Origin: Methanobacteriota archaeon
GTDB lineage: Archaea; Thermoplasmatota; Thermoplasmata; SG8-5; JAGLSY01
NCBI GenBank assembly: GCA_020696385.1
Contig: JAEHCQ010000004.1
Span: 64,001-128,000, forward strand
Direction of reading: 5' to 3'
DNA: 64,000 nucleotides
Shown here: piece by piece, positions 8,130 to 48,489 of the stretch
How positions within the stretch are numbered: position 1 is the stretch's first letter
Layout: each line of letters opens with the position of its first letter
Notes under the pieces: model-generated
Databases searched by the model: none
What the model saw: only the letters and a program-made list of their open reading frames with translations
Told to the model about the DNA's origin: nothing
Translations under genes and position numbers: made by a program

Positions 8130-8368
8130 CCCTTCACTCTGTTAATATTAAGGAATGCTGGCATTCGCCATATTAATTAGACAAGCTGGCCTTGCAATAA
8201 AGACCAATCTTCGAATGCATCCCTTATGTCCGATGGTAATATCTATCGAATAATTAAAGTTTAACCTCGCACAGTCCCTAATGCATCACCTTCTCGTCCT
8301 TTAAAAAATAATATATATCTCTCTCTCTTTCATTGTATTATCTTGATACACCATATTGGAGTGATCAC

Positions 8369-9406
8369 ATGAACCTAAAAAAAGAAGACCTTCTCAAAGA
8401 CCTGATAGTGCATTATGACATGAAAGAACATGACGTGGTCGACATCGTGGAATCCATGTCCACCATGGCTTTTCAAGCCCGCAATCTATCACGCGCTGCT
8501 GAGATATACGACATGATGCTGGCTGACCATGATTGCAAAGTCATCCTTTGTATGTCCGGTTCCTTATTTTCAGCGGGTCTGAAGAAGATCGTTCATGACA
8601 TGATAATGAACAATATGGTCGATGCGATTGTCTCGACTGGCGCGGTCATAGTCGATATGGATTTCTTCGAGGCCATTGGATTCAAGCATTACATTGGAAC
8701 CCCATTTGTGGACGACAATGATCTCCGCGAATTGCACATTGACAGAATATATGATACTTTCATAGATGAAGAAGAGTTGCGCGTGTGCGACCAGACAGTG
8801 AAGGTAATAGCTGACAAGCTGGAAAAGCGCCCATATTCATCCCGTGAGTTCATCAAGGAGATGGGAAAGTATCTGGATGATCAGGGGCCGAAAGTTGACG
8901 ATTCGGTCATTCACGCGGCCTACAAGATGGATGTTCCGATATTCTGCCCAGCATTTTCAGATTGCAGTGCGGGCTTCGGACTTCTTGACCACCAGCGGCA
9001 GAATCCGGACAAGCACCTGAGCATTGATTCAGTTGCAGATTTCAGAGAATTGGTAGCTCTTGTTACAGCATCAAAACAGAGCGGCATCTTCATGATAGGC
9101 GGTGGAGTTCCGAAGAACTTCGTGCAGGACACTGTCCTCGGAGTGGAAGTTGATCCATCCGGCAAGCTTCTTGAGGATGTCCGGATGCACAAGTACGCGA
9201 TACAGATCACAGTAGCTGACGAGCGCGACGGTGCGCTATCGGGCTCCACCCTGAAAGAAGCCAGCTCCTGGGGAAAGGTTGAGACAAATCATGAGCAGAT
9301 GGTCTGGGCAGAAGCGACCATCGCACTTCCGCTTATAGCCGGATATGCTTATAACAAGGGCAACTGGAAGGGCAGAGAACCTTCCAGGTGGGGAAAACTT
9401 CTGTGA
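8369..9406 (+). CDS. dys: Deoxyhypusine synthase family protein
   Basis: IGGGVPKNF, DGALSGSTLKEASSWGK (catalytic Lys); ATG at 8369 after GGAGTGA SD. Confidence 0.9.
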   Translation: MNLKKEDLLKDLIVHYDMKEHDVVDIVESMSTMAFQARNLSRAAEIYDMMLADHDCKVILCMSGSLFSAGLKKIVHDMIMNNMVDAIVSTGAVIVDMDFFEAIGFKHYIGTPFVDDNDLRELHIDRIYDTFIDEEELRVCDQTVKVIADKLEKRPYSSREFIKEMGKYLDDQGPKVDDSVIHAAYKMDVPIFCPAFSDCSAGFGLLDHQRQNPDKHLSIDSVADFRELVALVTASKQSGIFMIGGGVPKNFVQDTVLGVEVDPSGKLLEDVRMHKYAIQITVADERDGALSGSTLKEASSWGKVETNHEQMVWAEATIALPLIAGYAYNKGNWKGREPSRWGKLL

Positions 9407-9423: not shown

Positions 9424-9452
9424 AAAAAAGTTAACGGGGTGTTAACTTTTTT
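9424..9452. terminator. Bidirectional terminator-like hairpin between dys and folD
   Basis: AAAAAAGTTAAC-GGGGT-GTTAACTTTTTT. Confidence 0.65.
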
Positions 9453-9539
9453 CCAAAGCGGCCTTCACCACATTACTCATCCGTATGATAATGTATCTTA
9501 AAGGCTGCCATTTTCAGCAGCCTTCACCACATTACTCAT
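9442..9539 (-). repeat. Duplicated folD 3' end with hairpin unit
   Basis: ATGAGTAATGTGGTGAAGGCYGCT present at 9539 (in gene) and 9480 (downstream), 59-nt period. Confidence 0.85.
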
Positions 9540-10379
9540 CAGCATCGCGATCGTCATCGGCCCCACACCTTTTGGCACAGGGGTGATGGCACTGGCCACT
9601 TCCTTCACACCCTCAAAATCAACATCCCCGACAAGACGGTAGCCCCGCTTGGCACTTGGGTCATCCACGCTGTTTATTCCCACATCAATGACAACGGCAC
9701 CAGGCTTTACCATATCTTGCTTGATATAACCTGGCACTCCAATGGCCGCGATAAGTATGTCCGCCTGACGTGTAAAAACACTCACGTCAGGAGTTCTTGA
9801 ATGGCATATCGTAACTGTTGCATTCGCCCCCTGCTTCTTCTGCATCAGGAGGTTAGCCAGTGGTTTTCCCACGATATTGCTTCGACCGACAATGACCGCG
9901 TGCTTTCCAGATGGGTCGATGCCACTTCTTTCCAAAAGGACCATGATCCCAAGGGGGGTGGCTGGGACAAAATATTCCCTGCCAGACATTATTTTTCCAA
10001 GGGAATCGGCGCTGAAACCATCCACATCTTTTGCCTGGGCTATCGCATCCAGTACCTTGTTGGAATCGATATGGTTTGGAACTGGCATCTGAACCAGAAT
10101 GCCGTGAACCTTATCATCAGTATTCAGGTCCTGAACAAGTGCCAGAAGTTCAGATTCCGTGGTCTCCTCTGGAAGCCGATGAACAAAGGAATTGATACCC
10201 AGCCTTTCACAGGCCCTTTCTTTCATGGCCACATAGGTCTTGGAAGCTTGATTGTCACCCACTATGACGGCAGCCAGTCCTGGAATTATTCCTCTCTCGC
10301 CCAGGCTCTTAATGGCTGGCTTTAACTCTTCCTTCACCTGGGCGGCAATTGCCTTTCCATCAATTATCTCGGCTGTCAT
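9498..10379 (-). CDS. folD: Bifunctional methylene-THF dehydrogenase/cyclohydrolase
   Basis: HGILVQMP, KDVDG, GRSNIVGKP, TPVPKGVGPMTIAML. Confidence 0.97.
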   Translation of the reverse strand: MTAEIIDGKAIAAQVKEELKPAIKSLGERGIIPGLAAVIVGDNQASKTYVAMKERACERLGINSFVHRLPEETTESELLALVQDLNTDDKVHGILVQMPVPNHIDSNKVLDAIAQAKDVDGFSADSLGKIMSGREYFVPATPLGIMVLLERSGIDPSGKHAVIVGRSNIVGKPLANLLMQKKQGANATVTICHSRTPDVSVFTRQADILIAAIGVPGYIKQDMVKPGAVVIDVGINSVDDPSAKRGYRLVGDVDFEGVKEVASAITPVPKGVGPMTIAMLMSNVVKAAENGSL

Positions 10380-33095: not shown

Positions 33096-33599
33096 TTGAC
33101 AGAAGTCGAGATAGTGGAGGCAATATTGTTCTCTTCCGGTAAGCCGATGACGATCCCTGATATTGCTAGAGCCGGCGACCTGGATGCTGATAAGATACGT
33201 TCTGCTCTCAAAAAGCTCTCCAGATCATACAAGAATCGCAATACCAGTCTTGAAATTGCCAAGATAGGTTCGAAATATGTTCTACAGCTTAGAGAGGAAT
33301 ATAAGAAATCTACCGAAACTGTCGCACAAAGAGAGCTCCCTCATGAAGTGATAAAAACAGCCGCCCTCATAGCCTATTACCAGCCAATGAAGAAGAAGGA
33401 TCTGGTGGAAATGATAGGCAGGCCAGCCAATCCTCATGTGGACGAGCTCAAGAAGCACAGGCTGATAACCGCCGAGCGCGGTGCCCAGGGAAACATCATG
33501 CTGAATACCACGCCCAAGTTCTTCGAATTCTTTGGATTGGAGATGACGAAGCCAGAAGAGCTGAAACAGATGCTGATGAAAAAAGCAGGATTAAAATAA
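33096..33599 (+). CDS. scpB: ScpB
   Basis: VEAILFSSGKP, TAALIAYYQP, TTPKFFEFFGL. Confidence 0.92.
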   Translation: MTEVEIVEAILFSSGKPMTIPDIARAGDLDADKIRSALKKLSRSYKNRNTSLEIAKIGSKYVLQLREEYKKSTETVAQRELPHEVIKTAALIAYYQPMKKKDLVEMIGRPANPHVDELKKHRLITAERGAQGNIMLNTTPKFFEFFGLEMTKPEELKQMLMKKAGLK

Positions 33600-33708
33600 T
33601 CAGCTACTTTTATCATACTGATGAAGAAAGCGGGTCTCAAATAAGACCCACTTTAACTTCATGCTGATGAAGAAGGCTGGGCTTAAATAATTGCCCAGCC
33701 ATATTCAT
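33570..33708 (+). repeat. Three tandem scpB-3'-end hairpin units (45/46-nt period)
   Basis: Copies at 33570, 33615 and 33661 all encode (M/I)LMKKAGLK-stop; each is followed by its own inverted repeat. Confidence 0.92.
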
Positions 33709-33770
33709 TTATTATTAAAGTAATGTCCACAACTATAAATCCTTAAAGACCTTTCTCAGTACCGAAGCAC

Positions 33771-34832: not shown

Positions 34833-35257
34833 TGAGTATGTTGACAGTAGTTGGCGTAAGCCTGGCAAAGAAAGGCACGGAGATCATTTTTCTAGGCCCC
34901 CTATCTGAATGTAAGGTGTGTAAGGTCAAGAATATATGTTTTCATCTTGACAAGGGCAGTCATTACAAGATCGTCGGGGTAAGAGATGTCAAGCATGGAT
35001 GTGAAGTTCATGAAGATGGAGTCAAGGTCGTCGAGATCGAGAAGATACCTTTCAAGGCGGTCATGGACAAGAAGAAGGCCATTGATGGCTCTACCATGGC
35101 CTTTGAGTTACCAAGCTGCATAGAGAGAGGATGCGAGCATTATCTGCTGTGCTATCCACCGGGACTGGCTTCCAAGAATAAGGTTAAGATCCTATCACTG
35201 GATGGCAAGGTGGAGTGCCCTGCAGGCATGGCAAGAGTTAAGGTCACTCTTGAGTGA
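34829..35257 (+). CDS. UPF0179 family protein
   Basis: CKVCKVKNIC...C-E-VH Cys pattern; typical egsA neighbour. Confidence 0.8.
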   Translation: MMSMLTVVGVSLAKKGTEIIFLGPLSECKVCKVKNICFHLDKGSHYKIVGVRDVKHGCEVHEDGVKVVEIEKIPFKAVMDKKKAIDGSTMAFELPSCIERGCEHYLLCYPPGLASKNKVKILSLDGKVECPAGMARVKVTLE

Positions 35258-35436
35258 CCTATATGATTTCGAGTAGGTGAGGGCGATTTTTCTTTTGGAT
35301 TGGAAACCTTGTTCTTTTGGAGCCCGAGCCAGCACAGAAATCAATAAAAGAAAAGGCTTCCGTTAAGACCCTATCACTGGATGGCAAGGTGGAGTGCCCT
35401 GCAGGTATGGCAAGAGTGAAGGTCACTCTTGAGTAA
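35183..35436 (+). repeat. 75-nt direct repeat of the UPF0179 3' end (35183-35257 and 35362-35436)
   Basis: 4 mismatches in 75 nt; 104-nt spacer. Confidence 0.9.
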
Positions 35437-47700: not shown

Positions 47701-48489
47701 GCTGACGAATCTTGATCCATCACTGTACCATGCGATATCTGTAACTATGTCCCTATGGTTGTATATAGAATCGATCTCGGTCCATGTTGTGGTATCCCAG
47801 ACGATGATCGAGCTATCTTCGGAGCCAGATGCTAAGATGTCGCCATCTGGTGAGTATCCCAAACCTCTAACAGCACCTGTGTGTCCATCCAAGGTTTCCA
47901 GTAGATCGCCATTGGTTGGATCCCATATCTTGATAGTGTTATCGGAGCCTGCATCGATCCAACTCACTGCCACATTATCTCCATTGGCAGCTACGGATGG
48001 CCAGTTCTGGATGGAATTGCTCATGTTCGCAACTTCCTGAGGTTCCTCAAAGGACTTTCCGCCATCCATCGATCTGCTTATAAAGACATGATCGTCTTGA
48101 TATGAGTCCTGCCATACGACATAGACATCATCCCCGCCACCATTTGCCAGGGCGGGCATTATCTGATTCCCGTTCGTATTAAGATTCACGGTCTTGTCAT
48201 CTGTAAATGAGGTTCCATTATTGGAGCTGTATGAGATATAAACATTCTTATTACCTCCCCTTTCCTCACTCCATGTGGAGATTATCCTTCCTGAATCAAG
48301 AACAGTTACATCGATATTTGTCTTAAGTCCAGTATAGCTGTCATCATTTACCTTGATGTTCGTGGATAGGCTGATAGCTCCAACATTGGGAGATACATTC
48401 ATTATCAAGCCGGATAACATGGCTGTTATCATCAGCATCGTTATAAACAGGGTGAATTTTTTTTTCAAGTAGACCACCTTTATAGACAT
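44731..48489 (-). CDS. Large surface protein: BNR/Asp-box propeller, WD40 propeller, Ig-like domains, C-terminal TM
   Basis: Signal peptide; SxDGGxSF boxes; GHTGAV...ASGSED..IIVWD repeats; FSEPMD Ig-like motif; TM and acidic tail. Confidence 0.85.
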   Translation of the reverse strand: MSIKVVYLKKKFTLFITMLMITAMLSGLIMNVSPNVGAISLSTNIKVNDDSYTGLKTNIDVTVLDSGRIISTWSEERGGNKNVYISYSSNNGTSFTDDKTVNLNTNGNQIMPALANGGGDDVYVVWQDSYQDDHVFISRSMDGGKSFEEPQEVANMSNSIQNWPSVAANGDNVAVSWIDAGSDNTIKIWDPTNGDLLETLDGHTGAVRGLGYSPDGDILASGSEDSSIIVWDTTTWTEIDSIYNHRDIVTDIAWYSDGSRFVSTSWDGSVKIWDPVTLDELDDLDEVGGIMIDNPANAVDISDDMGHIAVGYNGKENPNSFSDGLPDEYYNVTVWDTGDWSSFTVNEKSGGGDSSSIMDVKFSHDDGLIATASNNVKVWNPTNGSLEYDFDVGISKVNSVAWSPDDIFIAAGLTNNSILVFNHTNYTDQFWLEGHEGSVNDLQWNEVTDQLASVASEPNARIWDTDSTMNLVNLSGHRNTVYSLDWSQTNGEIATAGGNSRMKGLLESQIFCAYSSDGGQTFSDPIIVSDTLKGSKNSPDIVMDANNGTHIVWSDDRTGNEGIYYANSTDNGASFSMDIDISVTNKVENTPALDVERDTGIVHITWQKGTGGDNSNPIYDIHYSNSSDGFSNVKIIDGTTAVQQASDIAVTPDGGIIYVTWIDSRLGGYQVFLYSSSDGGSTFTGYDVVNDESTQSKNFPAIACNVYGDVSLVWRDYREVGINIYHSGSVVSDTYNPIITSATPLDGSIDVSIFKSIYIEFSEPMDRASVENTFSLTDGNRTFNVNDFFITWSDYDDEIRLSPLTPLLYSTTYTATLDNGPKDISDNVMDGDYSWSFSTGIDTDAPVIQLQLVIEVSDMLFTIMQNGTFDVNYDETVTISAEIKDYNGKIDETKLYYKGVGESTYSALNMENNTDLNNDRYSATIPAQNALGNVSLYIWASDVIGNTGNTTLYSFKVKDMKMPEIVMPNITEQPVGQTVSIDVEVTDFSAIQNVAMIYWESSAPFAKEMNLSFDPVARNYQAVIPQQDNIGVITYNISATDTHGNKNDSSLRSINIIDDIKPVIVLKDAEILEDKSIRISATVTDNVDLDEVSLYFKAVGGDLWVKRSMSNNETSDDEYSFTIPAQTKSGTVYYYINATDTSGNSASTLDDIQDLAHELPVVGTETPWLLYLIPIIILVGVISAAWFLKGRRSKPAGDDEDLGDDDGDDDDDEVPHIEEDASNDKPEQIEEIESSKQVEETDITQNEPVDEK

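Follow-up and report, generated by a model that had tools for sequence, protein, structure and literature searches.

A second gene end and a stop-spanning hairpin at archaeal folD: a candidate case of replication template switching or slippage

Introduction

How a gene comes to carry a second, untranslated copy of its own 3′ end, with a strong hairpin lying across the stop codon of the first, is the question raised by folD in a stretch of 64,000 nucleotides (nt) from a Thermoplasmata archaeon (assembly GCA_020696385.1, contig JAEHCQ010000004.1). This stretch, called the window below, comprises bases 64001–128000 of contig C44 of a genome (G000) of 2.28 Mb in 50 contigs that is 94% complete. 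A preliminary description of the locus had proposed that a 59-nt hairpin inserted into folD supplied the present C-terminus and displaced an alternative end downstream, and that one sequence-specific mechanism, acting at an 11-nt core shared with scpB some 24 kb away, was responsible at both genes. The analysis reported here confirmed the observation and partly supported that interpretation. On balance it appears probable that the folD 3′ end is the result of an old template-switch or slippage mutation, in which either a short segment underwent inverted triplication or an entire hairpin unit was duplicated.

Anatomy of the folD end

The open reading frame at 9498..10379 on the minus strand matched PF00763 (THF_DHG_CYH, E 1.8e-43) and PF02882 (THF_DHG_CYH_C, E 1.5e-67) and is FolD; the protein ends in ...MSNVVKAAENGSL. 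The end of the gene reads, on the minus strand, ...GCGATGCTG ATGAGTAATGTGGTGAAGGCTGCT GAAAATGGCAGCCTTTAA GATACATTATCATACGG ATGAGTAATGTGGTGAAGGCCGCT TTGGAAAAAAGTTAA CACCCCGTTAACTTTTTT, and the following features lie on it or next to it.

9498..10379, minus strand: folD coding sequence, 293 amino acids, from the list of open reading frames and Pfam; stop codon TAA at 9498–9500.
9516..9540, minus strand: repeat copy 1, G + ATGAGTAATGTGGTGAAGGCTGCT, coding for MSNVVKAA; translated, and the 5′ arm of the hairpin.
9485..9539, minus strand: interrupted hairpin of about 22 pairs, holding the codons for ENGSL (GAA AAT GGC AGC CTT) and the stop codon TAA.
9481..9497, minus strand: linker GATACATTATCATACGG of 17 nt, joining the present stop to copy 2.
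9457..9481, minus strand: repeat copy 2, G + ATGAGTAATGTGGTGAAGGCCGCT; untranslated, and different from copy 1 by one third-position base.
9442..9456, minus strand: displaced tail TTG GAA AAA AGT TAA (LEKS-stop), homologous in degenerate form to the E-(N/K)-S.. tail.
9424..9452, minus strand: A/T-rich 12-bp hairpin AAAAAAGTTAAC / GTTAACTTTTTT, then T-rich sequence; z −3.04 for a 72-nt stretch.
8333–9406, plus strand: convergent deoxyhypusine synthase gene (PF01916), whose end lies 36 bases past the displaced folD stop.

A 25-nt segment, G + ATGAGTAATGTGGTGAAGGCYGCT, is thus doubled with a period of 59 nt and a spacing of 34 nt between the two repeats, and the sole mismatch between the copies is T/C. 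The 20-mer ATGAGTAATGTGGTGAAGGC from this segment occurs at exactly two sites in the window, 9520–9539 and 9461–9480, both on the minus strand, where 0.01 would be expected. In the outer stem of the hairpin ATGA.TAATGTG pairs with TACATTATCAT and in the inner stem TGAAGGCTGCT pairs with GGCAGCCTTTA. The 64 nt at 9482–9545 (minus strand) gave a folding energy of −25.0 kcal/mol (z −5.81), and none of 200 shuffled sequences was as stable. The start of the repeat falls no more than 1 nt from the hairpin base, and an inverted copy of that start, ACATTATCAT (9485–9494), sits in the 17-nt linker; the spacer matches the repeat in inverted orientation with p=0.013 (ungapped scoring). The anatomy given in the preliminary description, a stop-spanning hairpin and a displaced second gene end with the sequence as quoted, is therefore correct.

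The stop codon of the displaced tail falls within the A/T-rich 12-bp hairpin and is untranslated. This hairpin is kept in a second species of the genus (G002) and is likely to be a terminator common to folD and the convergent deoxyhypusine synthase gene. It was not flagged by a scan for the terminator consensus, owing to its low G+C.

Which of the two tails is the older was examined by comparison with other FolD proteins. In 13/15 more distant proteins (P0016–P0030) the last helix is followed by a tail of the AAENGSL type, (A/C)-E-(N/K/S), in forms such as AAEN(S/T)L or AAEKS.. The present tail of the archaeal protein is thus typical of the family, which shows that the hairpin did not create the C-terminus as had been supposed. 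The displaced tails found in this genus (LEKS-stop, TKS-stop and SSK-stop), judged from their sequences, look like degenerate copies of E-K-S. The duplication appears, then, to take in the last helix and part of the tail, with function retained by the upstream copy, and the only clearly new part is the 17-nt linker with its 10-nt inverted copy.

Presence and absence in relatives

The genus was represented by four species, G000, G001, G002 and G003. In the 270 nt of folD that immediately precede the repeat, G000, G001 and G002 are mutually 82–85% identical, and G003 is 77–80% identical to those. The 59-nt unit is present in G000, G002 and G003, among which ACATTATCATAC is invariant and copy 2 begins with ATG exactly 17 nt past the stop. 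A single folD end was found in G001 (...KAASN-stop) and in G004, which belongs to another genus of the same family; the alleles without the 59-nt unit that had been predicted for relatives do, therefore, exist. All three outgroups with readable ends (G004, G017 and G024) have a single end; in the other five of the eight outgroup loci the gene end was not located by motif search. Over 26 nt the lone end of G001 has the same sequence as the displaced copy of G003, and the G001 tail, SN-stop, resembles the displaced SSK-stop of that species.

Among 11 genus-level FolD protein clusters (at least 79% identity) three end in AASN or AASNL, six have Glu right after the Ala/Thr pair (AAENGL, AAEKSGL twice, ATEKSSL, AAELSGL, AAEASGS) and two end in AAAESQ and AAER. 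Among public sequencing runs one match was found (0.04 of words), none of those listed being of RNA; it yielded short pieces of the conserved folD of other organisms and no contig spanning the unit. A metagenome pattern scan for the repeated segment returned 10 loci from unrelated organisms, either bacterial FolD with AMLMSNVVKAA or other proteins, and added no members of the genus.

The unit is thus derived and old, and its absence from part of the genus is most simply accounted for by precise loss. Of the four species G003 diverges most and appears basal; the direction of the change rests on these four.

The hairpin itself is retained in all three species with the unit (−24.6, −20.9 and −25.9 kcal/mol). 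At columns 15, 18 and 21 of the 5′ arm both sides differ between species with pairing kept (G-T/C-G/C-G, G-C/A-T/G-T and T-A/C-G/C-G respectively), and columns 12 and 24 show paired two-sided change in two species. The hairpin has been maintained, and these changes, in a set of three species too small for statistics, fit either structural selection or repeated homogenisation of the two arms. The conservation of copy 2 might be attributed to its pairing with the inverted copy. This fits G002, in which four stem differences are all transitions to G-U, but not G003 or G000, and the idea was rejected.

scpB and other duplicated gene ends

The second gene to which the preliminary description had drawn attention encodes ScpB.

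33096..33599, plus strand: scpB gene (PF04079).
33573–33617, 33618–33663 and 33664–33712, plus strand: three tandem hairpin units at the scpB end, with z −3.89, −6.17 and −6.17.

Each unit codes for (M)LMKKAGLK-stop with synonymous differences only, unit 1 alone being translated. In every unit the coding arm is matched by a complementary 3′ arm of that same unit, and all three units run from ATGA to TCAT. The duplication claimed for scpB is therefore real, and in fact amounts to a triplication, more than had been described. The junctions of the form TCAT-N4-ATGA are also as claimed, with TCAT ACGG ATGA at folD and TCAT ACTG ATGA and TCAT GCTG ATGA at scpB. The scpB array is different in all four species: three units in G000, one and a partial 18-nt repeat in G002, and one each in G001 and G003. 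Unit 1 is present in G000 only.

The frequency of such arrangements was determined by seeking the last 48 nt of each of 1676 long open reading frames within 200 nt downstream, with internal windows as control. Downstream copies were found at 29 gene ends against 7 in the control at a score of at least 14, and at 20 against 5 at a score of at least 20. An independent census gave 242 short-range direct-repeat loci, of which 148 lie within open reading frames, 48 are intergenic, 35 span a stop codon, 10 span a start codon and 1 spans both; several of the 48 intergenic loci are tRNA 3′ ends or the ends of small genes. Two perfect duplications flanking runs of N (C33, stop 11897, minus strand; C46, stop 178293, minus strand) were dropped as scaffolding artefacts. 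The remaining loci fall into two classes.

Class A, about 11 loci: period 78–236 nt, with a member of a repeated intergenic element family (see below) between the copies.
Class B, about 17 loci plus scpB: period 32–90 nt, with local sequence only between the copies.

In class B an inverted match to the repeat is present in the spacer at 6/16 loci at p<=0.05, where about 0.8/16 would be expected, and at 3/16 at p<=0.01. The boundary of the repeat coincides with the base of a hairpin at six loci, namely folD, scpB, C46:97.1 kb, C22:178.0 kb, C47:60.4 kb and C48:72.6 kb, and multi-copy tandem arrays are found at C22:56.7 kb, C44:26.7 kb, C46:40.5 kb and on C2. Pairs bridging coding and downstream sequence (at least 10) occur at 779/1673 gene ends and 847/1673 internal windows. 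As gene ends show no excess, the folD hairpin is not simply the usual terminator style of this genome, and stop-spanning hairpins as a general terminator style were rejected on the same figures. The events differ in age: four class B loci are duplicated in G000 only, two are common to G000 and G002, with or without G001, and three class A insertions are confined to G000.

At C22:178017–178130 the repeated unit, TGGAGGTCATCGCGTGA...ATGACCTC, contains a GGAGGT that also precedes the start codon of the next gene. Two full units and one partial unit are present there in G000 and G002, one and a partial unit in G001 and a single unit in G003.

Origin of the second gene end

At folD two direct copies flank an inverted copy, the order expected of an inverted triplication. 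This layout, the boundary at the base of the hairpin, the recurrence of such duplications at unrelated genes with no sequence in common and what appears to be precise loss all point to an inverted repeat as the site where template switching or slippage took place in replication. While folD was being replicated, the nascent strand at the gene's end would fold back, or slip, at the inverted repeat there, re-align at the start of the MSNVVKAA segment and copy that segment a second time. In the sequence as it stands the upstream copy is in frame, with the family-typical tail and a stop codon, and the downstream copy, its tail and the original terminator are 3′ untranslated. Copy 1 pairs with the inverted copy in a strong hairpin across the stop codon. 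Since the event spans the stop codon and leaves the protein intact it would survive, selection keeping only stop-spanning events of this kind. The hairpin may have been kept since by selection or by repeated homogenisation of its arms, its likeliest use being as a 3′ structure of the mRNA, and slippage between the two direct copies could remove the unit precisely, to give alleles like that of G001. The available text of one paper describes small inverted triplications as arising by replication error and being removed precisely by slippage over the hairpin (PMC13334657), and that of another describes template switching as able to create and maintain RNA hairpins (PMC8794818).

The proposal of the preliminary description was different: a sequence-specific process, which might be either a mobile hairpin or a site-specific enzyme that inserts at GATGCTG^ATGA near stop codons. 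The 11-mer GATGCTGATGA is indeed identical at folD (9536–9546, minus strand) and scpB (33569–33579, plus strand) and stands ahead of the repeat in both genes; its third site in the window (48429–48439, minus strand) has no duplication. Genome-wide there are 16 sites, of which 14 are in frame within long open reading frames. Only those in folD and scpB lie within 50 nt of a stop codon, and both are duplicated (2/2); the other 12 in-frame sites lie 190 nt or deeper inside genes and speak neither for nor against a target. Both junctions also read TATCATAC[G/T]GATGA (at scpB that of unit 1), and TGATGA is mildly commoner in duplicated tails (6/37 against 98/1639, p=0.024 uncorrected, 8 motifs tried). 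On the other side, no common motif was found at the left boundaries of the 37 genes with a stop-spanning short-range duplication, the repeats of which range from 14 to 86 nt or more. The best of the 8 motifs tried gave p=0.016–0.024, which is not significant after correction, and none of the other roughly 35 duplications has the core. When 37 gene tails were drawn at random 2000 times, 68% of the sets had some 11-mer in common, so that sharing of this kind is frequent by chance. In both genes GATGCTGATGA codes for Met-Leu-Met, and AMLMSNVVKAA is a FolD motif that was found by the metagenome pattern scan to be kept as far as unrelated bacteria. No shared insert is present either: the arms and spacers are inverted copies of each gene's own sequence, TATCATAC being the sole sequence common to the folD and scpB spacers. 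Moreover, the folD event is older than the split of three species and scpB unit 1 is confined to G000, and in G001 the core adjoins the folD stop yet no duplication is seen. These results point against a specific target at folD, the common 11-mer reflecting the Met-Leu-Met codons, and make a site-specific process very improbable. A transposable hairpin with a fixed target, of the MITE-like kind, was rejected for similar reasons, as the spacers are locus-derived and there is neither a target motif nor a fixed length of duplication.

Plain tandem duplication by slippage, without fold-back, is a simpler possibility, the hairpin having arisen earlier or later for an unrelated reason such as termination or mRNA stability. 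It would suit the 10/16 element-free loci that have no significant inverted copy, the several loci that are multi-copy tandem arrays, and the possibility that the inner stem of the folD hairpin predates the event. It does not explain why the repeat boundary falls at the hairpin base at six loci, folD and scpB included, or why inverted copies are present at 6/16 loci against 0.8 expected, and there is no general enrichment of such hairpins at gene ends. This explanation is considered distinctly unlikely.

Several observations weigh against template switching or slippage at the inverted repeat in its simple form. The microhomology at the folD junction, 1–3 nt, is not diagnostic. The clearly new inverted part, ACATTATCAT, is only 10–11 nt long, and since AAG GCT (Lys-Ala) can pair with AGC CTT (Ser-Leu) in the conserved tail, the inner stem may be a quasi-palindrome of older date; an origin by inverted triplication in one step is thus unproven. 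G002 bears a second linker-like 12-mer, TATCATACGGAT, about 55 nt past the folD terminator (L002, position ~1894). It may be a trace of a duplicated unit of formerly greater size, or of an additional unit, and would fit the duplication of a larger pre-existing hairpin unit. The junction sequence common to folD and scpB unit 1 occurs at only 2 sites in the genome; the chance of the shared junction position was estimated as roughly 1–2%, an odd coincidence. At the DNA level the evidence from the genus covers four species.

A further difficulty concerns the displaced copies, which are not decaying like neutral fossils. A 24-nt segment of folD was compared in 8 sequences, namely the translated and displaced copies of three species and the single ends of G001 and G004. 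The 7 columns that vary are all third codon positions, and no change is seen in the other 16. The differences between copies fall at third positions in 19/22 cases in class A (codons 19 synonymous against 2 non-synonymous, p=1e-4) and in 16/23 cases in class B (14 against 7, p=0.02), where the neutral expectation for the share at third positions in the displaced copy is ~46%. A simple model therefore needs the addition of recurrent deletion and re-acquisition, conversion, or import of alleles. Recurrent precise deletion and re-acquisition, by which the displaced copy would regularly become the working end, is one possible source and is fitted by the unit-less alleles of the genus; in large populations a deletion rate of even 1e-5 would yield effective selection on the displaced copy. 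Conversion or re-duplication is suggested for the folD of G000, in which the copies differ at 1/24 positions, and is seen directly at C11:175449–175535, where a 39-nt gene-end duplication is present in G000 and in its orthologues in G001 and G002. The copies there are more alike within each genome than between genomes, that is, they show concerted evolution. Import of one copy from a diverged lineage is strongly suggested by the sequences at C48:76.5 kb, where both copies code for the same IHRRLAEL-stop with 8 synonymous differences in 27 nt and copy 1 matches the sister species G002, which has no duplication.

Import can be extended to a general explanation, in which a diverged allele recombines by a homologous join inside the gene and an illegitimate or Campbell-type join at its end, the resident end being left as the second copy. 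The imported copy would be the upstream one, or at other loci the downstream one. This would account for the coding-like evolution of both copies in the two classes, for the scpB units, which differ only synonymously and each have a matching 3′ arm, and for C46:97.1 kb, where the inverted arm matches copy 1 at 16/17 positions against 12/17 for copy 2. For folD, however, the divergence of the unit between species (~21–22%) is like that of the rest of the gene (16–23%), and as the unit is common to three species no recent import is needed. The concerted evolution at C11:175.4 kb shows that conversion or re-duplication on the spot also yields the pattern, and no donor lineage was identified. Import as the source of the folD end is accordingly regarded as unlikely.

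Expression of the displaced end would be another reason for its codon-like conservation. The protein would then have two C-termini, by translational bypass from copy 1 to copy 2, by re-initiation at the ATG of copy 2, which stands 17 nt past the stop in all three species, or by removal of 59 nt from the RNA. The folded structure also recalls the bulge-helix-bulge motif, which has two 3-nt bulges separated by a 4-bp helix, as the hairpin has single-base bulges on opposite strands with a 4-bp helix between them. But across 21 loci no start codon or open frame leads consistently into the displaced copies, the bulges are of 1 nt instead of 3 and cutting at them would leave the frame unrestored, the stop lies five codons past the repeat and not beside a take-off codon, two stops occur in the −1 frame within copy 1, and the other loci, with periods of 32–90 nt, have no common recoding signal. 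Expression of the displaced end is barely credible on these grounds, and two particular forms of it were rejected outright: a −1 frameshift into the frame of copy 2, since the two stops intervene and the only A-rich run sits in the loop of the hairpin, and an archaeal bulge-helix-bulge intron, since each bulge is a single nucleotide (G at 9535, A near 9484) and excision would not bring back the frame.

Three further candidates were discarded. A C/D-box small RNA was suggested by box-like motifs in CTGATGA; internal boxes are lacking and the two ends pair in a complete helix and not a kink-turn, although no formal test was applied. Duplication of an attachment site by an integrative element is at odds with the 34 nt between the folD repeats, and the four tyrosine-recombinase matches are all on other contigs. 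A diversity-generating retroelement was excluded because no reverse transcriptase (PF00078) was found in the genome at its 94% completeness and the sole difference between the copies is T/C, where adenine-specific mismatches would be expected.

Comparison with known systems

Hairpin-promoted slipped-strand replication gives tandem duplications. The unit here resembles such a product, being a whole hairpin plus 2–4 nt, which at several gene ends forms arrays of 2–4 units with expansion and contraction between species; slipped-strand duplication alone, however, leaves the synonymous-only differences between units with matching 3′ arms unexplained.

Integrative elements replace the 3′ ends of genes, as do e14 or phage 21 in icd of Escherichia coli, and archaeal elements target tRNA genes. 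As in integration of the icd type, a gene end is doubled with one copy functional, the differences are mostly synonymous and tRNA 3′ ends are among those affected. In the icd type a kilobase-scale element with an integrase lies between the repeats, whereas folD has 17–34 nt of local sequence and the element-bearing loci ~100–230 nt without any gene.

Programmed translational bypass is known from T4 gene 60 and the mitochondrial byp elements. There, as here, matching codons surround an untranslated gap of ~50–60 nt with a hairpin and a stop codon. Unlike in bypass, the folD stop is not adjacent to the take-off codon and no signal is common among the loci, which are known here from sequence alone.

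There is also a likeness to the inverted triplications and template switches of the literature (PMC13334657, PMC8794818, PMC5453318), which in the available text of these papers have the same layout of repeat, inverted copy and repeat, a short spacer, a local hairpin, precise loss by slippage (at folD an apparent one) and compensatory-looking changes in the arms. The examples given in that text come from yeast, human and cancer genomes and from rRNA or miRNA, with triplicated segments of ~150 bp on average (PMC13334657). The folD event differs from them in its segments of 10–25 nt, its position at the stop codon of an archaeal housekeeping gene, its fixation at the level of the genus and its codon-clean displaced copy. 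Searches of the literature for gene-end duplications in prokaryotes or archaea found no paper on the subject, supplementary files being outside the search.

The intergenic element family

The elements between the copies at class A loci are structured, intergenic and 75–230 nt long, with T-rich tracts facing both directions, and were found at ~30 other sites in the genome in addition to loci L028–L037. They consist, in order, of a conserved left flank CCGAGCGAGCAGG and an arm of 7 nt, then GA, a T-rich core that may contain hairpin modules, AG, the second arm, complementary to the first, a conserved right flank GCCAGCACAGCGAGG and lastly AAAAGAAAAGG. The two arms are fully complementary in 23/32 copies, with 25 distinct pairs, against 23/960 when arms are mixed across copies. 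Dozens of copies per genome are present in three families of the order, and the element was also found in several metagenome-assembled genomes of Thermoplasmata. The elements are typically flanked by duplicated gene ends of 14 to >200 nt with mostly synonymous differences, and sometimes by a tRNA 3′ end or the 5′ end of a gene. One copy lies in the window.

35258–35361: element copy, between the copies of a UPF0179 gene end at 35183–35257 and 35362–35436.

The folD locus (9442–9545) has no match to the element motifs CCGAGCGAGCAGG ... GCCAGCACAGCGAGG, this being the nearest in-window copy. A search of the window with Rfam at the gathering threshold returned three tRNAs only, with no match at folD, scpB or the element, and no description of the element family was found in literature searches.

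At tRNA genes (C11 near 632.3 kb on the plus strand, and on other contigs) 20–26 nt of the 3′ end are duplicated past an inserted element, 120–220 nt away. Such duplications are like those of integrative elements, but the copies are only 120–220 nt apart. The only Y1 (IS200/IS605-type) transposase gene of the genome lies at C50:2010–2357, within C50:1500–2360; ~26 nt of its 3′ end are repeated ~480 nt downstream, past a tRNA gene and one element copy. Only one element lies ~300 nt from this gene, and any link between the two is putative. A second repeat family, of ~200 nt with the hairpin motif GCATGCCCCG...CGGGG, is represented by L062 490–701 (C48:76.6–76.85 kb). It has at least 20 other copies in G000 and G002 and occurs in multiple copies in two or more species of the genus.

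The element family, as distinct from the folD unit, resembles the repetitive extragenic palindromes REP and REPIN with their RAYT (Y1) transposases (PMC3116915): both are short, structured, numerous and found at gene ends, with order-wide vertical persistence and a single Y1 gene. REPINs are not known to have long flanking gene-end duplications or a hypervariable paired stem such as the element family shows.

A wider, doubtful suggestion is that gene ends serve as exchangeable cassettes in this order. Local hairpin units and the terminator-like elements of the family might repeatedly insert with a second gene end and be lost or exchanged between lineages, so that displaced ends of genes and tRNAs would stay coding-competent, and the elements might be a new small mobile kind that integrates by homology with the gene end that it carries.

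Conclusions

Gene ends in this genome, and in its order, are unusually prone to duplication. The folD locus indicates that an essential gene can have its end remodelled harmlessly by an error of replication, which adds a strong 3′ hairpin and leaves a spare gene end, and such gene-end duplication is seen at about thirty genes in one archaeal lineage. Duplicated ends of the same kind also surround a structured intergenic element family that occurs order-wide and is undescribed in the literature searched. In annotation, such gene ends give rise to variable C-termini and to apparent small open reading frames downstream of genes. That the spare ends are free of non-synonymous change implies frequent reversal, conversion or exchange between lineages, and the duplicated gene ends thus offer a natural system in which these processes may be measured in uncultured, probably polyploid archaea.

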